A DNA stretch of 64,000 nucleotides, from assembly GCA_032718475.1 (NCBI GenBank), contig JAUCBJ010001006.1, forward strand, positions 1 through 64,000, in the 5' to 3' direction. Each line of letters begins with the position of its first letter. The first letter of the stretch is position 1. The notes beneath the pieces are model-generated. The model saw only the letters and a list, made by a program, of their open reading frames with translations, ran no database searches and was not told the origin of the DNA. Positions 1 to 55,405 of this stretch are shown piece after piece. The stretch comes from Nemertoderma westbladi (Eukaryota; Animalia; Xenacoelomorpha). Both the position numbers and the translations under genes were made by a program.

Positions 1-371
1 TACCTTGGATTACTTCATGATGATTAAACTAAAAAAGTCGTTTTTTACAACAAAATATTCAAGCCTATTCAAGGCTGCCCATGCCTTTCCCTTACGTATT
101 CGAAGGTCCTCACCTGACTTCCGGATCCATGATCCCAGGTAACAGAAGTCGTCCACATGCTCAAGCATACCATCTTTTGAGCTTATGCTCATCCGATCAG
201 AGACTTGCTGAGGACTTTCAAAGTTAACTGTCAAAATGTTGGTCTTTCTGGAGTTAATAAGAAGACCAACACTAGAAGCAGCATGTTATAATGATTGTTG
301 GGCTCCCTCTATTGATTCTGAGGGTACTCCTAAGTCATCAGCAAAGTCTAGATCAGTTAGGTACTTGGCAG
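1..371 (-). pseudogene. RTE RT C-terminal part
   Basis: Minus strand reads PAKYLTDLDFADDLGV and then VDDFCYLGSWI, continuing the ORF broken at 1782. Confidence 0.9.
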
Positions 372-605
372 TAACAATGTGTTGGCAAGCTGTATTTTTC
401 GAGGTGTTTGTCATTATACATTTAATAGGAAGGGATCTTGGGGTCTTAGCCTCGAATGATAAGTTTATTTTACCGAAAATAACTTATCTTTTATTGGCGC
501 AATTGTAGGACTAATCCCATCACATGCGTACTTTTTAACTGGGTAGTGTACAAATTTAGGAATCGCGTAATTTTTTCTTGAAATTAATATCTCATATCTT
601 TCCAA

Positions 606-648
606 ACCACGTACGCGTTTCGACCTTACTGGGTCTCATCAGCGTGGT
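606..648 (-). ncRNA. Type I hammerhead ribozyme, copy 1
   Basis: Minus strand ACCACG-CTGATGA-GACC-CAGTAA-GGTC-GAAACGCGTA-CGTGGT: intact core, stems I and II, minimal palindromic stem III. Confidence 0.92.
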
Positions 649-711
649 GTCGGATTCGAACCTGGGACCTCGAGGTGGAAACCGAGACTACAACCACTAG
701 GCCACAGGTTC
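645..711 (-). promoter_or_regulatory. tRNA-derived head with Pol III A and B boxes (also at 1057-1123 and 1470-1536)
   Basis: A box TGGCCTAGTGG, anticodon-like arm CTCGG-TTTCCA-CCTCGAG, B box GGTTCGAATCC, ending in ACCA. Confidence 0.8.
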
Positions 712-1017
712 TTGAGATATGGAGTATTAATTTCAAAGCCAGCTGCCATTTTATTAGCCCCTGATTTTTTATTATTGATAGTAACAATGTGTTGGCAAGC
801 TGTATTTTTCGAGGTGTTTGTCATTATACATTTATTATAGGAAGGGATCTTGGGGTCTTAGCCTCGAATGATAAGTTTATTTTACCGAAAATAACTTATC
901 TTTTATTGGCGCAATTGTAGGACTAATCCCATCACATGCGTACTTTTTAACTGGGTAGTGTACAAATTTAGGAATCGCGTAATTTTTTCTTGAAATTAAT
1001 ATCTCATATCTCTCCAA

Positions 1018-1060
1018 ACCACGTACGCGTTTCGACCTTACTGGGTCTCATCAGCGTGGT
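1018..1060 (-). ncRNA. Type I hammerhead ribozyme, copy 2
   Basis: Identical to copy 1. Confidence 0.92.
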
Positions 1061-1430
1061 GTCGGATTCGAACCTGGGACCTCGAGGTGGAAACCGAGAC
1101 TACAACCACTAGGCCACAGGTTCTTGAGATATGGAGTAATAATTTCAAAGCCAGCTGCCATTTTATTAGCCCCTGATTTTTTATTATTGATAGTAACAAT
1201 GTGTTGGCAAGCTGTATTTTTCTGAGGTGTTTGTCATTATACATTTATTATAGGAAGGGATCTTGGGGGCTTAGCCTAGAATGATAAGTTTATTTTACCG
1301 AAAATAACTTATCTTTTATTGGCGCAATTGTAGGACTAATCCCATCACATGCGTACTTTTTAACTGGGTAGTGTACAAATTTAGGAATCGCGTAATTTTT
1401 TCTTGAAATTAATATATCATATCTCTCCAA

Positions 1431-1473
1431 ACCACGTACGCGTTTCGACCTTACTGGGTCTCATCAGCGTGGT
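1431..1473 (-). ncRNA. Type I hammerhead ribozyme, copy 3
   Basis: Identical to copy 1. Confidence 0.92.
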
Positions 1474-1781
1474 GTCGGATTCGAACCTGGGACCTCGAGG
1501 TGGAAACCGAGACTACAACCACTAGGCCACAGGTTCTTGAGATATGGAGTATTAATTTCAAAGCCAGCTGCCATTTTATTAGCCCCTGATTTTTTATTAT
1601 TGATAGTAACAATGTTACAATGTAACAAAATTACGCGATTCTTAAATTTGTACACTACCCAGTTAAAAATTACGCATGTGATGGGATTAGTCCTACAATT
1701 GCGCCAATAAAAGATAAGTTATTTTCGGTAAAATAAACTTATCATTCGAGGCTAAAACCCCAAGATCCCTTCCTATAATAA

Positions 1782-3950
1782 AGGTACTTGGCAGGATTTT
1801 CTCGATTTCTGGAGCCAGTAGGTGGAGTTATCATCACCCCATCATCATTATAATGATCTATGGACATGCGTAGAACATGGTCAACCACAATAATGAGCAA
1901 GAATGGTGCAAGTGTGTCTCCTTGGAGGACACCCCATAACACTTCAAATGGTTCTGTGTCACCGTCAACAGTAGACACAAATGTTGTCGAACCATCGTAT
2001 ACTGATCTGATTGCTGCAATAATTTCATCAGGAATCCCGTAGAATGAAAGTATGCTGACCATACGTGAGCAAGAGACTGAATCAAAGGCCTTGAAGATGT
2101 CAACAAAGATAACAACAGCTAGATGCCTGTCTTTCTTTTTTGATAACTCTTCAATTATCCTTCTAAGTGCCAAAATGGGCTCCATGGTCCCACGACCTTT
2201 ACGGAACCCATTCTGATTTCCATGGAGCAGTCTCTCAATGGGATCCCTGATGCGATTTAATAGAATTCTATTGTATAGCTTTGCAGCAATCGAGTTCAAT
2301 GAGATTCCCCGAAAAGAACCATAGTGTGTTAGGTTGCCCTTCTTGGGAACTGGCACCAATTTATTTGTTTTCATTTCTTGTGGGACTCTTGTTGTTCGGT
2401 ACATGTCTACTATGATGGGATAGATGAGCTTTAAACACTCAGGTATTATAAAGACCTCAGGGGGAACACCATCTACTCCCCTGGCACGATTGGTCTTAAT
2501 GCTCTTTACAGCAGCCTTCACTTCTGCAAAGGAGATATCGCCAAAGGGAATATCTGGGAGTACAGAATCAGACAGTTTTACTTCTATAAAGTTATCAGGC
2601 AATACCCTGTCATTTTTGAGGAGCTTTTCAAAGTGGGCCTTCCAACAATTGAGACAATCGGCCGGTGATTCAGTCTTAACCTTGGTGGTTGGTTGGCGTT
2701 TCCGCCCGGTAAGCAAGTTGATCGATCCCCATGCCTGGGATGATTGCCTGCTGTCGTCGGCATCATTGATGGCATCAACCTGTTGGTTTATTAGCTCCTG
2801 TAGATTAACAGAGTACTGTCTGTTCAGGGACCTAGATGAAGCCTTAACTGCATTCTTGGCCGCTGTAGTCTGTGTAAGTTGGGACTCTTTCTGCGCCTTT
2901 TGGAGGTCATTTCGGCACTTTTGAATTTTGCTGTTAGTCCAGGGGGCCCTTTTCCTGTTTCGAGGGAATACAGGAACTGTTTCTGCAGCTGCTAACTTAA
3001 CTGCTTCTGTGAAGGTAGTATAGCCCTCGCAGTGATCTACCGCTTCAGAGGCAAGAACCCTCATACCTGTTGCTCAGCTGTAGTGTGAACCTGGATCTCA
3101 CTCACACTTGGCTGATGCAACAGGGAGGACCAGTCATGGCGCGGCAAGGCAGGTTTCGTTGTTTGGCTAGCATGCAGACTAAGTCTTAGGTTGGCCACAA
3201 TAAGGCGGTGATCACTGGGGAAGGGGCGAAGAGTAAATGCATTACAGTCTTGTATAGAGCTCCTGTATTTCCTACGAAACAGAATATGATCTATCTGGGA
3301 CTTGTGTCCACTGGGTCCATTATGAGTCCATAGCTTTCCAGTTCGCTTCTTGAACTGGGTTCCAGCCGAAAACAATCCATTTCCAGAGATAAAATCCTGA
3401 AGATGGACGGAATTTCGGTTAACTCTATTGCTATAGATCCAGGGCGATGTAGGTGAATGATGCCTTGCATTAAAGTCTCCCAGGAATGTTAAGAATGCAT
3501 GCTGATCCACAACATCAGTAGCTGCTTGTAGATTGTGGTAGAAATTTTCCACCTCCTCTATAGGGGCAACACTAGTTGGAGAGTAGCACACAATCAGAAC
3601 CACCTTAGTAAAATTCTTAGCAAGTCTTCCAGAACATGAGAAGTGGCAACGGATGATGCGGTTAGAGATTTGGTCTATTTTGTCCAATTCTGCATGTGCA
3701 GTTGGATTCATCAATAGACCAATTCCACCATTGCCACTATCATCTGTTGATGCGAGGGCGAGTCGCCAACCGCCCCCATGTCCTTAATCAAAACCTTCAT
3801 CAGTCTGTCCAGTCTGCATTCGGTACTCTTGAATACCAACTGCGCTAAGACAAAGCTTATCTGCCAAGGCAGTCAGCTCACCTTGTCGCATTGGGGACCT
3901 GAGTGTTAGGGTGTTAACTGAGGCTAGTCTAGTGACCTGCCTCAGATTCA
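1782..3950 (-). pseudogene. RTE endonuclease plus RT N-terminal part (frameshifted)
   Basis: ORFs 3061..3714 (EN) and 1742..3064 (RT). RT homology breaks at ...RENPAKYL. Confidence 0.9.
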
Positions 3951-11260: not shown

Positions 11261-11542
11261 CAAATACCAGATTCTGGTTGTAAGATAAGAAATAGGGGTT
11301 AATTGCTACCGTACGCTAGCTGATCTGGTATACAAATTTGATTCTAGAATTTTGTTGCTGCGGTAGTTAGCAGCAAATACCTATCAGTACGTGGCAAGGC
11401 GCGGTAGGATATTAATAAAACCTCCCTAGATCAAGCAGTGTGCCGGTAGCAGGCTATTCCTGGTGCGCTACCCGAAGCAGACAATACGATAATTGAGACG
11501 CGTGGCGTTCTTGGAGCCGGTGGAATTTCTTCTGGTGGCATT

Positions 11543-14395
11543 GTGGAGGGTCCGGTTTTAGTTGAGGATGACGAAGACAACGAGGAACCCCAACTAGTTG
11601 ATCCCATTGTCGCTAAAAGAAATCGAGCAGCTCGGAAATGCGCTTTTACTAAGTTGTTCAACCAAATTACCAAACTTGTACATAGTAAAGGAAGCCGGTC
11701 CGCGCTTAGGTCACTCCTATACAAATTGGAAGAACGGGCTGTCGAATGTTTCGCAGCCCACAAATCTTATGTCAACTGCATTGCAGATGATGTAGACGCC
11801 GACATCACAGCTGACCGATGGTTATCATCGCTGAAAGATGCACACCAGTGGTGCGTGGAGACTGTAGAATTCTATTTAAATTCTCGTCATGGAGAACCTT
11901 CCTCTGTGGCTACCAGTCGAGTTTCTTCTCGTTTATCGAAACCTGCTAACAGTAATGCTTCTAAGTTGTCATTGGCGGCCCAACAGGAGGACCTGCTACA
12001 GGAACGTGAACTACAATTAGCTCAGTTTCAGCGCGATAGAGATCTACGAGCAAAGAAACGGGAACAGCAAAGACAGAATGAAGAACTTAAAGAGTCTCTA
12101 CAACTCCGTTCATTGTATAACAGTGTGGAACGTTCTCGCCTTTCTGTCAACCTGGAACAGAAAAGAGCTGTCCAGGAGGGACAGATGTATCTCGAGCAGA
12201 GACTTTTAGATTTCGATTGTGGCGTTCCTGCATTGGCTGGTGGCGTTCAAATACCAGCCAGTGGCGTTCATATATCAGCTGGTAGCATTCCTATATCAGC
12301 TGGTGCCGTTCTAACACCAGCTGGTGGTGTTCCTATACCAACTGGTGGCGTACCTATACCAACTGGTGGCGTACCTATGTCAGCTGGTGGCGCTCATATA
12401 CCAGTTAGTGGCGTTCCTATACTGGTTGGCGGTGTTCCTATACCATCTGATGGCGTTCCTATTCTCGCTGGTAGCGTTCCTCACCCAGTTGGTGGCGTTG
12501 CTACTAGCAGTGTCTCTACACCAGCTATAGGAGAATCCGTTTCGTTTTCTAAGCAATGTCTGTTTGTTCCTAGCTCGATGGATCATATGTCCATTATCAG
12601 TCAGCCTTTTCCAGATTTACATGTGTGCAATAACAATGTTAACAATCCATATACCCCTGTAAGTAATTATTTTTCTGGTGCTAATAATTCTCATTATAAT
12701 AGTCCTTATGATAATCACGTGTATAATTGTGAATGTGTCTCCAGTCAGGATCTACAGAGTCGTATAGGTTGTTTACCAGTAAATACTAATTGTGCAATTA
12801 ATTATTCTCGCCCATCCTCTTATGGTACACATTCTGTTATTAAGCCCACCACTTGGGATACAAGTTGTCCCGTTTTTGTACCAAACTGTCACACTACGTG
12901 TACCATTGTTAATGCGTCAACACCTCAGTGTATTTCTATTGGAGGGTTGGCCATGGGTGTGTGTGATAGACCCCCTGGGCCAAATGTTAGTGCGTGTAGG
13001 CGTAGGGTTGCATCCCAGGTAGGTGGGTTATTTAACGGGCTGGCTGTAGATGTACCAATCTATACTGGTACATCCGAAATTTATAATTCTAACTCACGAA
13101 ATTCTCAATCCTCAGCAGATGTTTGGATTGATGATTTAAATAACACATGAGTTAACAATTCTTTTACTAATAATTGTTTTAATAACTTTCCATACCAAGG
13201 ACCCATAGGTTTCCAACATTTAGCCAACCTAAAAATCGAGCCATTTGATGGTTCTCCCTTGAAGTGGCATGGTTTTATTGCCTCTTTTCATGCCCTTGTT
13301 AACACTCAGGTTTCATCTGATTCTATTCGTTTAGCAATTCTTAGAAATCATTTGACACCTGAATCAGAGAGAGTGTAGCTTCTACAGTACTATTAACGAC
13401 CCTGATTTATATCGGGAGACATTACAAGAATTACGCCGTATTTATGGTGACTGTGACTTAATAGCTGTGGCATACATAGAGCAACTACGAAAAATTCCGT
13501 TTGTTAAGGCTAATGATATGAATTCTTTAAAGTCATTTTCCTTAAAACTTCATGGTTCGGTATCAGCCCTGGAGAAATGTGGATACACTGCCGATATTAC
13601 ATTAGCTAATAATGTAAGGGATTTAGTTCAAAAACTTGTTCAAAACCAATTATATGCAAAATTAATGGGGCAAATGGGTTATTCTTATAAAACCTCGGCG
13701 CCCAACCTTAAAGGTGCTAGACAGTTGGATCATTGAGAGGTTGCAAAGTGCTCGTGTGGTAGAAAGTACATTACGGGCCAGTAGTAATAGTTATACCAGT
13801 AACCATGGCTTGTCCAATAACAAATCATTTCAAAATAAACCGCAATTTAACAGGCCTAAATCCAGTGCTCCAACTGTTTTTACACCTATATTATGGCTAC
13901 TGCCAGCAATAAAGTTAATTTTTCTGAAACACAGTCAAATAAGTATCAGAAATCGTCTAGTTTCGACTCGAGCCCACTTACTAAAGGCCATGTCCTAAAG
14001 GCTATGTCGGCTACTGCTTCTGTGGCTGAACACTGTTATTGTTGCGGCCAGTCCCATTTTCTTGAAAATTGTAACAATTTTAAATCATTAAGCCTAGCTG
14101 ACCGCATTGAGTTAGCCCTGGACAAATCCATGTGTTTTGTATGTCTCAAAGCAAAGCACCGCGCTGCAAATTGTAAAAAAGTAGACCCTTGTAATTTCGA
14201 TGGTTGTAAAAAACGCCATCACGTTTTATTACATGGAGCACCTAAGGTTTTTGGTGCTAAATCTTCTTCCCAAAATAAACAACACATAGGAACTACCTCA
14301 TTGAGAACATCCCCTAGCACTGTAGCATTACAGATTGTACCACTGCGGGTACGTTCTACAGGTAAAACTGTTGAAACTTTTGCTTTGTTAGATCC
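11543..14395 (+). pseudogene. D gag and protease N-terminus
   Basis: ORF 11543..13150, capsid-like IEPFDGSP at ~13235, three Cys/His knuckles in 13893..14432, ending at FALLD. Confidence 0.85.
12230..12500 (+). repeat. 21-bp tandem repeat encoding (GGVPIP[A/T/S])n in D gag
   Basis: About 13 units of GGTGGCGTTCCTATACCA-like sequence. Confidence 0.9.
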
Positions 14396-14499
14396 TTATC
14401 CTTATACCTTATATTTGAGATTATTCCTTTGATCATTATTCATTAAATGGTTGTTGTTGTTGTTGTGGCTGTACGTACTATACTGCTATACTCAGTTAT

Positions 14500-16090
14500 A
14501 TGGATACCGGTAGGCATTGTTCTGACTGCCAGAAGGCAGAATGTGCTTTAGATCCTGGAGGTAGGATAGTAACTACTAGGCCTATTCCTAAAAACTCTCA
14601 TTCTAATCTCGACACTTTTGAGGGCAGACTGCTCTGTCAAAGTTGTAAACTGAAGCGCGGAGAACGGCTAACTCCTACAGCTGAAGCTATGTGTGTGGGC
14701 AACCGTGACCCACCTAACGCCAACAGCGTTCTGGAAGACGATTCCTCAGACGAGGATGAGCTGTCTCAACTTGATCCTGCCACTTCCAGGCTGGAGTCAG
14801 TTGGTCTATCGACCGACAATACGGAAAATCCAAAAGTTATTTGCGAGCTGCTATGTTTTGTGCAGTTTCAAATTTCCTCAATGGACAAAACATCTCTCAT
14901 TTCGGTTGTTTCAAATTTTTACTCCCTCTCGGAGGTAGTGGCTGCCAAAAGACTCCTCTTTGATGAAGCGGGTAAATGTGCATCCGCCGATCGTCCTCTG
15001 CCTGCGTGGGTGGGTCTGATGGGTAATAAAAAGAAAAAGGCCCACATTAATGATATATTTAATCTGTTCAATGAGAGCGCTTTTATAGATATCCCCACGA
15101 GACCTATATTTGTTGCGCTAAACACTTCTCGTCTACCCCCTTCCGATAATTCGTCGGCTAAGGCAGCAGTTAGGGACGAAGAAGTTTGTGACCTACGGGA
15201 TCTGGTTATTTCGCTAAAAGAGAAGGTTTTGATCCACGACTCCCTATTGACCTCTTCTGTCTGTAGTCGGGAGGATTACTTGAAGCTAAAGCACTTTGTT
15301 TTAAGTAACAACTCAGTCAACGTTGTGTCTGCTGGGGGAACTCCTGGGTCAACTACCGTGTGGAAACACCAAGTCGCTCCTCCTACTCCGCCAGTGATCC
15401 TCGTTGATGGGGATACGGCTACGGCGGACGGTCTGGATAAAGCCCCGCTCCGGGCACACAGGGATACTCCGGGACCGGCTCCCGGCAATTACCCCCGCTC
15501 CAGAACCGGCGGACCTCCGCAAGGTTATCGCTCAAGTGAAGTTGGCGCCAACGTCTCGCTCCGCTCTCGGTCCACTGTACTCAACCATGAACTACCTTTA
15601 CATTCAGGTTCTACTGGCGGTAATACCGCAGCCGATTCTAATATTGATGAGGATGGATTTCGTCTCGTCCGTAATAAAAAGAAACGTGCGGCTCCGCGAT
15701 TTGGGACAGGCGACTTCTCGTCCGGGGATTTTGCTGATCTCTCGCTGGGCTCACCCTCTCGTTCTAAAGAGGTTCCAGAAAGGAAGGGATCAAATATTCG
15801 TATCGCGATTTAAGCCGCATGTATCTGCTGACTTGGTTAAAAACTTCTTATCTGATAAACTTAACGTAGAAGTGGATGTTGTTGAGAATCCAAATAAAAT
15901 CAACAATTCGTATAACTCCTTTATTGTAAGCCCACCTGATGAGTCTTCCTTCTCTACACTCCTACAGTTGGATTCATGGCCAAAGGGTATAATTGTCAAG
16001 CGCTTTTGGCCTGCGCCGCGATCCGGCATCGCCAAACTGACTTCCTCACCGCCTTCGACCCGCAGGGTGGGTGAGTCACCAGTAGCCTGA
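14500..16090 (+). pseudogene. LINE ORF1 with one frameshift near 15795
   Basis: Cys-rich N-terminus, ELLCF..FYS..EVVAAK..L block, and an RRM-like C-terminus (IFVSRF..SF..WPKG..VKRF) in the second frame. Confidence 0.75.
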
Positions 16091-33895: not shown

Positions 33896-36800
33896 ATGAG
33901 TCAAGAGAAAAGAGAGACGACACCGCCGCGGACCCCGGACGACAACCTAACGATCCGCGAGGCCACGGCGAGATGGTATCGATCCACGATGCCGGATTCG
34001 TCGACACCAGGTGATCCGACAACCAAAGAGGAGGGGGGCCGTCTACAGCGAGAAGACGAGTTGAGGGAAAGGAGAGATGAGTTGAGAGGGGAAAAAGACG
34101 AGTCGACACACGACGGCGGTCGACGTGCCAATGTTGCCGGCCAGCCACAGGCTGAGGGCAACGGACGGCCCACTGGAACGGCAACGGTGGAGCCGATGGT
34201 ACGACGCCGGACCCGGAGAGATAGAGGAGACATTGGCAACGAGGACGTCGGGGTCAGCAATCGGCTCCGACGAGCCTACGCCGCGACCTGGGAGCAACTG
34301 AAGGAAGCTAGAGGAGGGGCTGAAATAGACCAGGTGGAGTTGAGGAGACGACTAGGTGAGTCAAACAGATACTTTGATTACCTAGTGCGTTCTGGGCAGG
34401 GAGAACTAGCCAGGGAGATAGCGAGAGGGGTTGCCTTCAAACTGTTTGGGCTATGGGAACATAGGGGTATGTGGCCTGGTGTAGTGTACATAGGGCCATA
34501 CTTAGTCGATGCCAGGGAAGTTAAGTTAGTGGGTTGGGTGGGACCGCACGAAGGCGAATCCGAGGTTAGCTCCGAGGATTCGGTCTCGTCGGTCAGCGAG
34601 AACCCCGGAAAGTGGGGGAAAGTTAGTAGGACGGAGGGGCGGCGGGAGTCCGTTGCAACCGATAAGTCTGCTACATCCTCCGCAAAAGAAAGACGGGTGC
34701 GAGAGAGTGAACGCATGGCATATAAATTAAAAATGGAAGAATTAGAGTGGCGACTGAGGGGAAGGAAGGAGCAAGAGAGTGAACGCGAAGAGCGTGAGGC
34801 AAGAGAACAGAGCGTGCGGTACACGTACAGTACGCATAATAGCTGCACGGGCCGAGGGGGTAGTAGTAGTACGTTAGGAAATGTTGGTATTAATAGTACC
34901 GTAGTAGATAACCCTAATCCTTTTATTACAGGAAATATTTTACCTGGTAGTAGTAATTTAAATTTAAATTCAAATAATAATATTAATTCAAATATTCAGA
35001 ATAATCAAAATAATTCAAATAATTTAAATCTAAATACTCAAAATAATTTAAATAATAATCCCGTTTCAAATTCTAATAATTTAATTGATTTAGGGGATTT
35101 AATTGATTTAACAAATAATATTGGGAATGGTGCTATTAATATGAACATGTCGGATGTACATAGCCCGAAGGCGGCCTGGTAGGCCACTTAGTTAGTAGGC
35201 AGGAGGTGGCGGGGTTGAGCCAACCCGACGGCGGCCTGGTAGGCCACGTAGTTGATAGGCAGGAGGTAGCGGGGTTGAGCCAACCCGAGGTGGGCCTGGT
35301 AGGCCACGCAGCAGTAGAGAGAGAGGCAGGGGTGAATAGACCCAGCAGTAGTAGAGAGAGTGCGTCGACTAGAGAGAGGTGTAGAACAGAAGTGAGAGAT
35401 AGTGAAGTTAGATGTGGCGAGTGGGGGGGGGGGGGGGGGCTACGGGCGCCCCACCACATAAGATTAGTGGCGAGAGAGGGGGGGCAGAGAATGCCCCACA
35501 AGAGGGGTGTAGAAGTGAAGTGAGAGGTGATGAAGTTAGAAGTAGCGGGTGGGGGGGGGGGGCTACAGGAGCCCCACCACGAAAGATTAGTGGCGAGAGA
35601 AGGGGGGTAGAAAATGTCCGACAAGAGGGACGCGGAAGTGTAGTAAGAGATAGTGAGGTTAGAAGTGGCGGGTGGGGAGGGGGGGCTACGGGCGCCCCAC
35701 CACGAGAAATTAGTAGCGAGAGGGGGGGGGGGCAGAGAATGTCCCACAGGCGTCGGCAGATAATGCGCGGGCCGAATTAGGTAAACCGCAACACCCGGCG
35801 ATGGAGAATAATAGGGGGATTGCGAGTATCCCCAGCGGTGTGCGATCGAGCAGAGAGAGACAGGTTGACGTCGCGAGAGGGCGGGCGACGGAACGTCGAG
35901 CCCAGTCAGAAGAGAGAAGATTAGTAGAGTTTAACAGAGAGGTCGAAGATAGAAGAAGATTAGTAGAGTTTAATAGAGAGGTCGAAGATAGAAGAAGATT
36001 AGTAGAGTTTAATAGAGTGGTCGAAGATAGAAGAAGATTTGTAGAGTTTAACCAAGAGGTCGAAGAGAGGCAAAGAGAAGAGAATAATAGAAGAGTCGTT
36101 GCTAGGAGCAACCGGAGAGCGAGGACGGATAGCAAGCCGTCGATAGTAGAGATGGAGTTAGGGAGCCAGTGGGGTCAAACTTCGGGAGATTGCCGTCGCC
36201 CTGGAGAAACGTACCGCACACCAAGAGTGGGGTACAGGATGTACCGATACGAAGAAGAGAACAGGAGTGGGGATCAAAGAGAAGCTTCCCGACGGGATAT
36301 AGCTGCCGATCGAGAGTACGGTAGTTGCGGGGAGATTCGAGATTTGCGAAGAATAAACTTCGGTTCGGAAGGGCACATGCAGACTGCAGGACATACTGTA
36401 GGCCTTACTGCACGTACTATTATAGGCCATGCTGGGAGAGATAGAGTAGGCAATAAGGTAGCGCGAACAACGGGATTAAACCCGGAAGCCGCGTGGTACA
36501 TACCGGTAGGTATGCGAGAAGTAGATATGCCTATATCGGTACCAGTACAGCAGCATGACTATAATACACAAGGACATTACATATACCCAGGGGAGGGGGG
36601 AATTATTGCGGATAGGTGCATGGGCCCCAATATATTAACATCAAACCCAGTACCAAACATACCGGCGGGGGGGGGACAGGGTGACATTCCCCCATCACAA
36701 TATCAACAATATACCCCAATAGGAGCAAGAACATCGAACCCCTTGGACGAGAATAGGTTGTGCGGACAGTCGCTACCACACGCGGCCATACAGGGGACTG

Positions 36801-48602: not shown

Positions 48603-51600
48603 CTAAGGTGCCCCTTCTAGCAGACAGCATTTCCCTACAGCTCTCCTGTAGGTTTTTCTGTCCTTCGCACCTATCTTACCACCTATCCGCACTTCTACTG
48701 ATCGGACTCTTCCGTCCTCGTCGGAGTAAGTGCCTACAACTCTCGCCAACCGCCATTGGTTGTTGATGATAGTATCATCCGTAACGATTACGAGATCTCC
48801 CTCTCTTAACTCCCTATTCGGCTTCCTCCACTTGCTTCTTTTATGGAGCGTGGGCAGATATTCTTCGACCCACCTCCTCCAATACTCGGCACTTATTGCT
48901 TTAGCGACTTTCCAACTCTGGCGGGAGTGTATGTCGTCTGGATCTACACCCCGCATATTGATGGTTGCTGGCCTTTCCATTAGAAAATGGCTAGGCGTCA
49001 GCACGTCTAGTGATTCAGGGTCATCATTCTCCGGATATAGCGGTCTGCTATTAATGATCCCCTCGCACTTTGCAAGCACTGTCCGTAAGACGTCCTCAGT
49101 GACCATGTGGGTGTTCATGAGCTTTGTCATTAGACGCTTTGAACTGCCCACCAGTCTCTCGACGCATCCTAGTGTATGTGGTGCATACGGCGTCCTTCTC
49201 TCCCACTTTACTTGTCGTCGTCTCATGGCCGCCCTGACTTCCTCCCCTTCCAAGATGTCCAAGGCCTCTGCCATCTTATTCTCTGCGCCCACAAAGTTGG
49301 TGCCGTTGTCGCTGTATATCACTGCGATCGTCCCACCTTTGCGGTCTCTAAACCTTTCTAAGGCATTAATGAATGCTGATGCGGTTGCATCTTGGGCGAG
49401 TTCTATCCCTACCGCCCGCGTGTTGTTACATACGAAGATGATACCGTAGCGTTTCTCCGTGTGCCGCATCACCTTGATCTTTATCGGCCCGAACATGTCC
49501 ACACCGCAATGTGTAAATGGCGGGTCGTGCTGTCTTACTCTACTTGCTGGTAGTGGCGCCATCTCTTGTATGGCTCGCTCCTTCTTCGCTCGTCGGCAGG
49601 TTTGGCACTGCCCCACTACCGTTTTTACTTTCTTCCTCAACTGTTTGACCCAAAATGTCCTCCTTATCTCTGTGAGAGTTCTGTTGGTGCCCCCGTGCAA
49701 TATCGACTTGTGGGAGTCCCAGATTATCTGGTTAACTATTGGCGATCCTGTTGGAATGATGATGGGTTTCGGTGGTACAATTATGCTGTTGTTGTATCCC
49801 ACCCTAGAATTCATTACTAGAATCCCGTCGTCATTAAGTTGTGGCAACAGCGTGATCAGCTCGCTGTCCCATCGGAGGTGCTGTTGGTTACCGACGCGTT
49901 CCACCTCGTCACCATAGTTCTTCCGTTGTTCATAGCGGATGACTGCCTTGGCTGCTCCTTCCAGATCTATGGATGTCCTGATCTTCTTGTTTTTGCCGAC
50001 TCCCGCGAGGAAATTCCCGAAGGCTCTCCAGTACGCCACTAAGTTCTTGGTCTTATACCAACTAGAACTGTAGCTGAGGAGTTTATCCGTCGGGTTATCG
50101 CATAGTTCTTGCTTTGGTTGAACCTCCCTAATCTCCCTCACCATCTGGGAGTATATCTCTTCTCCCTCTGAATCTCCTTATTCTCCCTCTGACACCACTT
50201 CCGAGCCCGGGTCCACCTTTCTCATCGGCAGCCAGGCCTCCTTATCGCTCAGAAATTGTGGCCCATGTTGCCACAATACTTCCTTCTTCAAGAAAGTGTG
50301 GCGTACCACGCCCCTCGACAACAAATCCGCTGGGTTCTCGTCTGTTGGGCAGTAGTGACACCTTTCCAGTTCTGTGGTTGCCCTTATTTCGTCCACTCTA
50401 TTTGCGACGAATATCGGGTATCTCGTCCTTTCGTTATGTAGCCAACCAAGCACTACCATGGAGTCCGTCCAGTAGTGTGTCTCCACTATGTTGGGAATAG
50501 TATCCACTAGGTAGGCTGTGGCTCTAACTCCTAGTCTCGCAGCTGTCAACTCCAACTTGGGAACTGATGCTGAATCTGGCGGCGTCGACTTTGCTTTGCT
50601 AAAGGCTAGTCTGGGCTTTTGAGCCCCCTCTCGTTGTACTAAATAGAGTGCCGCTCCGTACGCCTCCAACAACGCATCGGAGAACATGTGTAGGTCCAGA
50701 TTCGTCATGTTCCCATCCAGAAAATACACTCGTGGCATGTTGTATATACCCATCTTCTCCAAGTCTTCTGTCCACTTACTCCACTGTTTCTTAATTTCCT
50801 CTGGTACCTCTACGTCCCACTCATCCTTCAATTTGTATACTCTCTTGAGTATCTGTTTCCCCGTGACTAATAATGGGGATGCTAGGCCTAGGGGATCGTA
50901 TATTCTTGCTATATACAATACATAGCCCCTCTTCGTGTGGATGTCTGCGCCCTCCTGGCTCAGCTGATACTTCAGTTCGTCCGTCTCTCTGTTCCACACG
51001 ATTCCCAATGCCTTCTGTTGGGATTCTGTTCTCTTGTTCGCCATGTCCTGCCCTTTGGCTGTTGTGGGATTATCCATGGTCGATTATGGTCTCTTGTCCT
51101 CTATCGCCTTGATAAATTCTTCCGAACTGGATTGGAATTTGGTCAGGTTAAAGCCGGATCCTTTTAGGATGTCGCAAACCTCGCGCCCTGTGTCCAGTAT
51201 CTCCTTAACCGTATTTCCAGACTCCATTCCGTCATCTACGTAGAAGCCGCGTCGAATCATATCGATGGCCCTAGTGCTGTATCTATCTTCCTTCCCTTTC
51301 ACTGTATCTCTCACTGCCATAGTCGTCGTAAATGAAGACGACTTGGCTCCCATATTTTGTACTACCATCTTATATGCCAGTATTATCGACGGTTCTTCCT
51401 CGCCGTTATACCATAAGAAGCATTGACTGTCGCTATCTTCCTCCGTTACACGGACTTGGTTGAACATGCCTTCTATGTCACACGTAAAGGCGTGCTTCCC
51501 ATTCCTAAATCTAAGTAGGACCTCTATGCCCGAGTTGTATATGTTTGGGCCTTCTAACAGATAGTCGTTTAAGCATTTCCCGTTGGTCTTTGCCGATGCG

Positions 51601-53867
51601 TCAACTACCATCCGCAGTTTACCTTTCTTTGGGTCTAAAGCCACGTGGAGTGGCAGGTAATATGTCCTGTCCATGTTCCGTTCGTCGACCGCTAACTCCA
51701 CGGCCCATCCTTTCTCGACGTACTTCTTAATCGTTTTGTGGATGTACTCATTCTTCTCGGGGCTCCGTTTTAGTGTTTTTTTCAGCTTGCGGAGTCTTGT
51801 GAGTACCATCCCTCTGTTATCGGGCAGCGGTATCTTCGGTAGTTTCCATACCATTCCTATAGTATACCACCCCTCATCGCATGTCATCAATTCCTCCACG
51901 CTTTGTAAAGCCTGCTTGTCTTCTACCGAGGTTCCGACCCCGGTCTCTTTCAGTCCCTCGAAATATTGTCTGAGCAATCTTTTAAGCTGCTCCTCTGCTC
52001 CCTCATCACCCATTTCCTGCATTGTTCCCGCGAACATGCATCCTGATGTCTCCGACATCCTAAATGGTATCTTGGTCTTAATTGGGCCACTCAGCGTCCA
52101 TCCGAATGGCGTTAATATCGCCACCCGGTCACACTGCTTGTCTTCGCCGCAGACCGTTTGCATTCTTTCATGGGCCGTTGGGCAATCCATTCCTACTATG
52201 ATGGATACCTTCCTAACGTCCACGTCTGGGATTGAGAAGTCAATGTCGTCCAGGAATTTATATTGCTCGACCTCGATGTTGGTTGGCCGCCTGGCATTGA
52301 TATTAATTGACTCTATCACTTGGATGGGGTCGATGGTTGCCCCATAGTCGCATTCCGGTGCCACTGCTGCAATTGCGCACCGGCCTGTTCTCATCTCCAG
52401 GATCTCATCTTTGCTAGAGATGGTTGTTACCGCCATTCTGCTTGGCCTCGTTCTCAATCCTATCTCTTCGGCCACCCATTCCTTCACTAATGTGAAGGCA
52501 GCTCCACTATCAACCAGCATTAGTGTTGTTACTGATCGATTGCCTTCCCCGATCACTCGCACGGGTACTACTCCAAGTAACACCGTTCCTCTCTTCTTCG
52601 CCCCTACTGTGCTCGTTGCCATCGTTTGGCCTCTCCTTTGACCGAACTTTACCGGCTTCTCCTTGCATTCCCTAGCTCTATGTCCACTCATCACACATCG
52701 CGAACAGATTTTATTGCTCAACGCATAATCTATCTGATCTTGCCTAGGTAGCGCCTGCCAGTACCTGCAGTTCATGGTCTGATGAAGTGCATTTGCGTGT
52801 AGCTGGCATCTGCTCTTTGGGTCGTAGCCCTCCTTATGCAGCGCATTGCGTATCGCAGCTGCGTTTGTATCAAAGTCCCTACTGTTTTTATTGTTTGGAT
52901 TCGGCCTACTGGACGTACTGGGGTTATATTTATTTGTGTTGTTATTGTTCCCCTGTCCGTTCCATGCTGTGGTCTTAGTTTCGGCTATCTGTGGACTTGT
53001 AGTCCCCTGCGTTGTTGCATATGGCAATGATTGCCTGAGTCTCGGTAATGCGTTTGATGTATTATGCTCTGGTTTCGGTCTATGGTAATCCGTCTTCGGT
53101 TCCTTTCCCAGGCTATCTTCGCTATAGACTGGGTCAGTTATTAGTTCAGCCTCGTAGTTTAAGAAGCTTGACATTTCTTCTAAACCCGGTTCCGCACCCT
53201 TCTTGTCTCGAGTGGAGAAAGCGATCTTCCTCCACTTGTTGCGCAGCCAGTTCGGTAGTGCCTGCGCTATCGTGGTGATGTTACTGGACGCGTTGAGCTC
53301 GTATGGCGCGTCTAGCATCTTCAGCACGATTAGCGCCTTTTCGACTTTGTTAGCGAACGTCTTGATGCTAACGGGATTATCCTGTAGGCCACCCGATGTT
53401 ATGCCTCTCAGTGTCTGCCTGATGATCTTGGCCGGGTGCCCGTATTCCCTATCCAGTGCCCGCCATGCTGTCGTGAAGCCGCCCTCTATTCCTTGATATT
53501 GCCTCACGATATTGTATGCTGGGCCTCCCGTGTATACTTGCAGATACTTTAGGCACTCCGCCTGCGTCAAGTTTTTTGTTAGTATTTCGTTACTATACAT
53601 GCGCCGAAACTGTAGATATTCTTCCGGCCTACTCCCATCGAACTTGAATGGTTCCACGGGTGGTAACTCGATCCTCGTTTTCAACGCATCGATCAACGTG
53701 GCCATCCCCATCGCCTGTGCTTCCAATGGGTTCGATGGATGTTGTATAGTTTCTCCTGTCTGGTGCGGTCCGTCTGTCCCATTTCCACCTCTCCTTTGAC
53801 TTGGATATGTCATCGGGGGTAGCGGCCCCCTCCATATTTCTGTGTCGCACGACCTATTTTCATCCAA
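48603..53867 (-). pseudogene. B gag (capsid, NC) and pol (PR, RT, RH, IN) with only two in-frame stops
   Basis: ORFs 51084..53867, 50178..51077 and 48603..50144 share one frame. Motifs PFKFDG, LVDSGA, FYVDD, MFSDA, VDMFGP, SDNGTNF, VERLV. Confidence 0.93.
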
Positions 53868-55405
53868 GGGTCTCGTTGTTCTTGCTCCTATCGGGGTATA
53901 TTGTTGATATTGTGATGGGGGAATGTCACCCTGTCCCCCCCCCCCCCCCCCCCCCCACCGGTATGTTTGGTACTGGGGTTGATGTTAATATGTTTGGGCC
54001 CATACACCTATCCGCAATAATTCCCCCCTCCCCTGGGTATATGTTATGTCCCTGCATGCTGTAGTCATACTGCTGTACTGGTACCGGTATAGGCCTATCA
54101 GCTTCTGGCCTACTCGCCGGTATGTATTCCGCGACTTCCGGGTTTAATCCCGTCGTCCGCGCTATCCCATTGCCTACATTGCCTCTATCAGTATGGCCTA
54201 TGGTATGTGCAGTAAGGCCTACAGTATGTCCTACAGTCTGCATGTGTCGCTCGGGATCGAAGTTTATTCTTCTCGAGTAGTCCTCCCCGCGGCTACCGCA
54301 TTCTCGATCCCTAGGTATATTCCGTCGGAAAGTTTCTCTTCGACCCCCCCCCCCCCCCCCCCTCTACTGTTCTCGTCTTCGTACCGGTACATCGCGTACC
54401 CCTCCATCGGCGCGTAATGCGCCTCACCAGGTCGCATCTCTCCGGGGCGACGGCAATCTCCCGGAGTCCGACCCCACTGACTCTCTGTTCTCATCTCGAC
54501 TACCGACGGCTCGCTATCCGTCCTCGCTCTTCTATCGTTCGCGGCAATACTTCTACTACTGTCTTCTCTTCTTCTCCTTTCAGTGGAGTATTCCCGTTTG
54601 TGAGATCTCTCGTCGACCTCCCGGTTAAACCCCACCGTTCTTCTTCCCTCTTCTGATCGGGCTCGACGCTTCGTCCACCCTCTTACAACGTCAACCTGTC
54701 TCTCTCTGCTCGGTCGCACTCCGCTGGGGATACTCGAAATCCCCCTATTGCTTTCCGTCGCCGGGTGTTGCGGTTTACCTATTTCGGCCCGCGCATTATC
54801 TGCTGACGGCTGTGGGACACTCTCTGCCCCCCCCCCCCCCCTTTCGCCGCTAACTCGCTGTTGTGGGGCCCCTGTAGCCCCCCCCCCACTCGCCACATCT
54901 AACTTCGCTATCTCTCACCCCGCTACCACATCCCTCTCCAGTCGACACATCAACCCTGCCGCAGTTGGGTCTATTCACCCCCGCCTCTCCCTCTGCTATT
55001 GCGTGGCCTACCAGGCCCTCTACTCCCTGCCTACCAACTACGTGGCCTACCAGGCCCTCACTGGGTCTACCCAACCCAGCCACTCCCTGCCTACCAATTA
55101 CGTGGCCTACCAGGCCCTCTCTGGGTTGGCTCAACCCCGTCTGCTCCGGCCTACCAATTACGTGGCCTACCAGGCCCTCTCTGGGTCTACCCAACCCAGC
55201 CACTCCCTCCCTACCGACTACGTGGCCTACCAGGCCCTCTCCTGCCTGGCCATACACGCCCGACGTGTTCACGCCAACAGCACTCATATTGGAAACGGAA
55301 TTAAATTGTTCGTTTGAAACAAAATCATTTGAATTATTTTGTAAATTTGGGCTTGGATCATTACTTAAATTATTTGAATTATTTTGTAAATTCGGGCTTG
55401 GATCA

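Follow-up and report, generated by a model that had tools for sequence, protein, structure and literature searches.

The layout of the SMalpha repeats of Schistosoma has reportedly been known since 1998. As set out in the available part of PMC6765202, a Pol III promoter, a type I hammerhead ribozyme and tandem copies have already been described for these elements, and the initial annotation of the present DNA had pointed to this precedent correctly. Metazoan retrozymes, in the portion of PMC7761336 at hand, seem to carry neither a promoter nor a motif revealing an autonomous partner; Penelope-like elements (PLEs) have been called "strong" or "likely" candidates for moving the retrozymes of animals, from co-occurrence (excerpts of PMC7229834, PMC7761336, and PMC8969392). 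As regards the PLEs themselves, two internal reverse transcriptase (RT) start sites are used on both target strands in vitro, and the optional tail arising from these two sites is a PLE signature in vitro and in genomes (available sections of PMC11167929). In EN+ PLEs, tandem copies are accompanied by a 5'-truncated copy in inverted orientation, the tail is found on one side only, target site duplications (TSDs) measure 8-10 bp, and inverted junctions contain palindromes (parts of PMC8557442 and PMC3846280).

The window, i.e., the whole stretch of 64,000 nucleotides analysed here, contained an array of three tandem units on the minus strand: unit 1 at 372-780 (409 bp, with its left edge at the 3' end of the element), unit 2 at 781-1192 (412 bp) and unit 3 at 1193-1605 (413 bp), the last one followed by 10 nt of a fourth unit (1606-1615). 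TRF gave a period of 413, 3.0 copies and 98% matches for the array, and together with the alignments this agreed with the three units of about 412 bp proposed initially. The inverted partial unit described at that stage was also recovered, as a 5'-truncated piece of 155 bp on the plus strand (1627-1781, or up to 1786 if microhomology with the target is included) that corresponded to unit positions 52-206 and was 96-98% complementary to the three units. An 11-nt filler separated the start of the fourth unit from this piece, and the inner junction (1606-1627) was made up of two overlapping perfect fold-back palindromes with arms of 5 and 6 bp and 3-nt loops. No ORF of at least 150 aa was found inside the array, and the window copy had neither poly(A) nor simple repeats as a tail at its 3' junction; GC content of the element was 0.39, and LTR, PBS and PPT were absent, the last two as judged by eye only. 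The array sequence matched no other part of the 64-kb window. An imperfect inverted repeat of 23 bp (578-599 and 714-736, minus strand) flanked the tRNA-like head and the ribozyme, and is predicted by folding to extend stem I and to enclose the head in read-through or circular RNA. The predicted RNA was self-paired (z -3.2).

The array was inserted in the ORF2 of a host LINE of the APE type (1-3783, minus strand; Pfam Exo_endo_phos and RVT_1), which it interrupted just before the RT catalytic motif. The endonuclease frame of this LINE extended over 3061-3783 and the RT frame over 1742-3073, continuing to the left of 372; its closest homologues reached 49-60% identity at best. Identical 13-mers were located at 359-371, in RNA sense at the 3' end of the element, and at 1782-1794, with a GC content of 54%. 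Once the insert and one 13-mer were removed, the LINE frame ran on into the RT catalytic motif. Moreover, in the sequencing runs X1 to X5 (X1 and X2 from one sample, X4 guessed to be RNA), insert-free host-LINE contigs in which position 371 passed straight into right-flank-like sequence were present in X1 (61), X3 (27), X4 (1), and X5 (2). The continuity of the frame and the existence of these empty paralogous sites indicated that the 13-bp duplication around the whole array, as claimed initially, is a true TSD.

At 230-371 the LINE copy of the window showed a gap near 295-296 and several substitutions relative to its family; the host LINE was therefore probably already decaying at the time of insertion. 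Elsewhere, the window consisted of nested LINE and Bel/Pao-type LTR fragments, and this repeat content would indicate an animal, probably an invertebrate. Long frames of 566, 190, 464, and 230 aa without Pfam match occupied 11450-15813, upstream of a LINE ORF of 962 aa; the ORF at 11450-13147 had Atlas matches only under 0.9, and a DUF1759 hint at 13356-13733 suggested the remains of a Bel/Pao gag. The block at 33893-62126 presented strong strand skews, many short tandem repeats, related segments in mirror orientation (with 60-bp repeats at 35164 and 55022), an RT frame of 1,041 aa and a near-complete Bel/Pao polyprotein set (48603-53984).

Each unit of the array harboured a perfect pair of Pol III boxes, in accordance with the initial annotation: an A box at 704-694 (minus strand; 1106-1116 and 1519-1529 in the other units) and a B box at 662-652 (minus strand; 1064-1074 and 1477-1487). 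The pair with its 31-nt spacer was matched three times in the window and never in 100 shuffles, and both boxes fitted the SINE Pol III promoter consensus printed in the available part of PMC8969392. The tRNA-like head that had been described around these boxes stood as regards the boxes themselves but not as a foldable tRNA: ARAGORN reported 0 tRNA genes in the head, the Rfam tRNA model gave no match over 101 bases even at E ≤ 10, and the minimum free energy fold was not a cloverleaf. Among 42 mostly prokaryotic tRNAs from the fetched loci, the head was best colinear with a prokaryotic-type tRNA-Val (z 6.6). The assignment of an isotype was discarded, the best alignments among these 42 mostly prokaryotic tRNAs being with Ser and Val. 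The middle triplet of the head reads TCC, and with the family majority letter at 681 the loop would begin with the standard C-U, a hint at Gly. The ACCA motif was placed 6 nt past the T-loop instead of 13, that is, 7 nt out of tRNA register, and the acceptor 3' strand is therefore missing from the head.

Pol III terminates at runs of four T. The sense strand of the unit contained a single such run, a possible leaky terminator (888-891, minus strand; also 476-479 and 1301-1304), and both 3' ends of the family described below were located downstream of it, which points to read-through RNA as the template. Avoidance of terminators on the sense strand was considered and rejected, as these runs were not depleted (1 seen vs. 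1.5 expected).

A canonical type I hammerhead was present in each unit, at 606-648, 1018-1060, and 1431-1473 (minus strand). In unit 1, stem I comprised 6 bp (648-643/611-606, minus strand), the core was formed by CUGAUGA (642-636), GAAA (621-618) and GUA (614-612), stem II (635-622) had 4 bp with a 6-nt loop, and helix III was reduced to one pair with a palindromic 4-nt loop; the core began 11 nt past the T-loop. The cut is predicted from this layout between 612 and 611, the same site as proposed before. A descriptor of core plus stems gave three matches in the window and none in 200 approximate shuffles, each unit having the complete core expected of the intact type I hammerhead in the initial annotation. 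The Rfam search that had been suggested there yielded HH9 with E-values from 2e-4 to 9e-4, but its scores of 26-28 bits were below the gathering score of 52. Minimal hammerheads are defined by a helix II of 7-8 bp, a helix I of 4-5 bp and the absence of a helix III loop (available part of PMC4209133). By these definitions, the stem lengths found here (6 bp in stem I and 4 bp in stem II) correspond to a canonical metazoan type I hammerhead and not to the minimal Penelope type invoked initially, and the palindromic loop was present.

The palindrome of helix III paired with itself at -7.5 kcal/mol, and folding predicted stems I and II in each of the 35 transcript contexts examined, with minimum pair probabilities over these contexts of 0.54-0.76 for stem I and 0.85-0.99 for stem II. 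A dependence of folding on upstream read-through was rejected, as the probability of stem I rose only from 0.54-0.76 to about 0.76. Loop-loop contacts are maybe weak, because stem I is devoid of the internal loop of the HH9 model. In the axolotl, HHR_Amex1, which also has one pair plus a palindromic tetraloop, is cut to 6% within an hour alone and cuts well as a dimer (excerpts of PMC7229834).

Contigs that aligned to one unit were numerous in X1 (3,546), X2 (1,868) and X3 (1,326) and fewer in X5 (73), these counts not being copy numbers, and most of them were at least 95% alike; judging from these sequences, the family is abundant and young. The dispersed copies by which the initial annotation proposed to test its reading were thus abundant and had unrelated flanks, a TSD being read at the window locus. 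Among the loose-end matches listed, on which all contig-end piles rest (24/583 and 19/565), 3' ends accumulated at two places. The pile at 770-772 comprised 19 contigs from X1, 24 from X2, and 19 from X3, and the pile at 823 comprised 8 from X2 and 12 from X3. A minor pile of 6 contigs from X1 was located at 835, and unit 1 had matching piles at 370 and 425. Beyond the two 3' ends, long unrelated flanks followed with a consensus agreement of 0.43-0.47; since the element does not carry on into the loose consensus, the 3' ends of the family are sharp. Letter differences at 770 and 822, common or private, could sharpen the piles through clipping; other private letters (681, 861, 952) were not accompanied by such a pile among the matches listed. 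No pile of 5' ends was seen at the Pol III start among these matches, and none at the predicted cut site among those listed in the unit 1 comparison.

The two family-wide 3' ends were about 52 nt apart and delimited a tail-like segment of 53 nt (771-823, minus strand) on the boundary between units 1 and 2. This segment showed a mild enrichment in A and C (0.66, ranking 46th of 412 windows), and an AC-rich stem-loop between the two ends was discarded for lack of a stable fold (z +1.2 to +1.5). In the window copy, the direct part ended near the downstream 3' site, the edge of unit 1 being about 10 nt short of the modal 3' end of the family, and the inverted piece ended near the upstream one, its outer end about 9 nt from the second 3' end. 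In this copy, about 50 nt separated the two ends, and the shortfall of about 10 nt from the mode at each of them counts against the PLE reading.

All three units had in common letters that were nearly absent from the family (0.00-0.03% at 681, 0.01-0.19% at 822, and 0.06-0.8% at 952, expressed as share of the summed contig depth and not taken as copy numbers), which indicated that the three units derive from one monomer ancestor. A contig of 441 nt in X4 was a permuted unit (411 nt plus an overlap of 30); tandem DNA explains it equally well, so this cyclic contig is not evidence of a circle.

Matches to the exact pattern of the element were absent from the metagenome contigs, and the hammerhead pattern had no match in viral contigs or in genome contigs. 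A pattern of B box plus hammerhead core retrieved 64 metagenome loci and 4 viral loci; three of the 64 passed the stem filter and only one of them, L056, resembled the window element. In L056 the 3' half of a tRNA-like head was fused to a type I hammerhead with near-identical stem II and helix III, and 59 of 71 aligned positions agreed with the window element (37 of the 49 not forced by the search pattern). In contrast to the window element, which lacks 7 nt there, L056 has ACCA at position 13 after the T-loop, i.e., in the true register of a tRNA, where it forms stem I. The rest of its unit was unrelated (score 74 vs. 93.5 ± 8 for shuffles), no tandem copy appeared in the 1,140-bp contig, and the A box was cut off by the contig start. 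The running of ACCA into stem I, as stated in the initial annotation, is accordingly out of register in the window element but in register in L056, and may hold for the ancestor, on the sequence of this one contig. Besides the head and hammerhead, the contig of L056 (1-85 and 830-870) contained telomere-like and AT-rich short repeats, suggesting a eukaryote.

A different association was observed in 16 of the 64 metagenome loci, some of them near-duplicates (L006, L009, L013, L017, L018, L020, L023, L025, L033, L034, L035, L037, L039, L047, L051, and L064), where a type I hammerhead followed 5-6 nt past the CCA of a tRNA-Glu(TTC) gene. Stem I of these hammerheads had 3-5 bp and helix III had 4-9 bp enclosing an insert of 50-65 nt; no Rfam hammerhead at gathering level was obtained in the six tRNA-Glu loci tested, and no literature on a hammerhead linked to tRNA-Glu was found. 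Theta ribozymes provide an analogue for ribozymes that process tRNA 3' trailers, and by this analogy the tRNA-Glu hammerhead is possibly a trailer-processing ribozyme of phages or bacteria. In the tRNA clusters of L008 (347-480) and L010 (around 1201-1250), the 5' side of hammerhead stem I was supplied by the CCA end of a tRNA, which is tRNA-Thr in L008. A GOLLD RNA and, separately, an Rfam Hammerhead_1 match were also present in L010.

Taken as a whole, we consider it quite probable that the family was mobilised in some form by Penelope enzymes, and we favour, with somewhat better than even confidence, a SMalpha-like, Pol III-promoted non-LTR retrozyme whose read-through multimeric or circular RNA is copied by the RT of a PLE. 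Transcription by Pol III would begin close to the A box and would occasionally have to continue beyond the T4 run, read-through from host promoters being an alternative to the element's own promoter. This read-through transcription would generate multimers with the double hammerhead as main self-cleavage form, the palindromic helix III pairing between neighbouring hammerheads and releasing monomers of 412 nt, and a lone monomer or circle would be a slow self-cutter. The unit-length RNA may then be circularised. The RT-endonuclease of a PLE would nick both target strands 13 nt apart, and cDNA synthesis would be primed inside the RNA at two sites separated by about 50 nt, which lie 200-250 nt downstream of the predicted cleavage site. 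Of the two cDNAs, one would reach about three units, by rolling circle, repeated use of the template or copying of an uncut multimer, and the other would stop after 155 nt, the two being joined head to head by fold-back synthesis. Rolling-circle copying is the simplest account of the three units; a circle is not required, because PAc transposition in vitro is independent of hammerhead cleavage (available sections of PMC11167929).

The Penelope-like reading in the initial annotation gained support from the two sharp family-wide 3' ends and from the fold-back palindrome at the inverted junction, the window locus having a tandem plus inverted 5'-truncated copy, a TSD and an inverted-junction palindrome. 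A GIY-YIG domain was not matched in the 58 window frames scanned, and no Penelope-like partner was found within the window. PLE endonucleases prefer AT-rich DNA, and the target here was GC-rich (54%); the segment between the two ends was, moreover, devoid of a stem-loop at the start sites. Also against a PLE, the tail of about 52 nt and the TSD of 13 bp exceed the published 30-40 nt and 8-10 bp, as far as the available parts of that literature go. A more specific proposal, which we put forward tentatively and hold at less than even confidence, is a self-promoting circular-RNA parasite of Penelope elements, in which an old fusion with a mature tRNA 3' end, with CCA in stem I and in L056 still in register, would be common to distant animals, and circles would be reverse-transcribed by the PLE enzyme from two fixed internal starts without any sequence borrowed from the PLE.

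Three other explanations bear on the same features. Copying of a tRNA-derived SINE by an ordinary LINE, from the family of the host LINE or another one, with multimers from Pol III read-through and the inversion due to twin priming, is unlikely in our estimation. LINEs typically leave TSDs of lengths such as the 13 bp observed, and twin priming joins an inverted piece through microhomology with the target, of which 4 of 5 positions were present here; besides, APE-type LINEs occur in the window and the inverted piece begins about 40 nt, in unit phase, from the beginning of the direct part. That phase match is, however, degenerate, given that the length of the direct part is so close to three whole units. 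An A-rich or simple-repeat tail was absent at the junction, no 3' sequence was common with the LINEs ending in the window (the 3' end of the host LINE lies outside), and the promoter was not accompanied by a pile of 5' ends among the matches listed. Nor does twin priming predict a second fixed end at 823 throughout the family.

Another explanation keeps the PLE and dispenses with the circle: only linear uncut RNA would be mobilised, the trimer coming from a tandem source or from a later duplication at the DNA level and the hammerhead being a passenger; we regard it as improbable. Uncut RNA is the main substrate of PAc in vitro (sections available of PMC11167929), and the two rarest shared letters (681 and 822) both fall outside the inverted piece; of the 10 changes private to one copy, 3 are in this piece, although it accounts for only 155 of 1,389 nt (P = 0.09), as if the units had been duplicated after insertion. 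This hint is weak, and a monomer offers just a 10-bp direct repeat for unequal crossing-over; private changes of units 1 or 3 were absent from the inverted piece within its span, and the unit-length cyclic contig of X4 suggests tandem or circular forms beyond the window locus. Least probable of all, we would be surprised by a satellite or a DNA-level mobile unit propagated by extrachromosomal DNA circles, or MITE-like by the 23-bp inverted repeats, without reverse transcription. The units are in tandem, those repeats flank head and ribozyme, and the RNA-based reading is drawn from DNA sequence. Copy ends do not coincide with the 23-bp repeats, however; the fixed 3' ends, the 5'-truncated inverted piece and the clean TSD fit target-primed reverse transcription, and the intact promoter boxes and the ribozyme are all on one strand.

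The type of element is not new, having the same architecture as SMalpha of Schistosoma. The new part is a retrozyme with Pol III boxes of its own and a family-wide Penelope end signature; in the open-access literature, no description of PLE tails or of inverted ends was found for any family of retrozymes or SMalpha elements. The question of the mobiliser now becomes directly testable, with an RNA of 412 nt, two predicted RT start sites and a predicted dimer-dependent cut. The parasite-of-Penelope reading, if true, would provide direct genomic evidence of what mobilises metazoan retrozymes and a natural rolling-circle substrate for PLE biochemistry.

Compared with classical tRNA-derived SINEs, the window locus is devoid of an A-rich, simple-repeat or LINE-derived tail, and copies of the family are not piled at the Pol III start among the matches listed. 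Its window locus resembles the EN+ PLEs Pen2a_Av and PAc in the direct tandem and the inverted 5'-truncated copy inside one TSD (parts available of PMC3846280 and PMC8557442), and the family does so in the optional tail, present on one side and derived from two start sites of the RT (PMC11167929, in part); the palindrome at the inverted junction and the hammerhead upstream of the 3' end are also as in the available descriptions of these PLEs. It differs from them in having no ORF and a canonical rather than a minimal hammerhead, and no sequence link of the window element to a PLE pLTR was found. By its sequence, the family has the genomic features of non-LTR retrozymes: tandem units in the range of 150-450 bp with a canonical type I hammerhead (available parts of PMC7229834 and PMC7761336), no ORF, LTR, PBS or PPT, GC below 50% (0.39 here) and a TSD above 4 bp, as given in the same portions, together with many dispersed copies and a self-paired predicted RNA. 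The weak palindromic helix III is shared with HHR_Amex1 of axolotl (PMC7229834, in part), whereas the perfect A and B boxes and the Penelope-type end pattern set the window family apart from retrozymes. SMalpha and Sjalpha, whose head is tRNA-related, likewise combine tandem copies with a type I hammerhead placed after a Pol III promoter, and they exceed 10,000 copies and leave their promoter at the 3' end of cleaved monomers (excerpts of PMC6765202, PMC2770079, and PMC8490949 for both statements). The unit of the window family, of 412 bp, is likened to SMalpha by description and not by sequence. The available portions of the SMalpha accounts name no mobilising enzyme or Penelope-type ends, whereas the window family has two 3' ends and an inverted piece.
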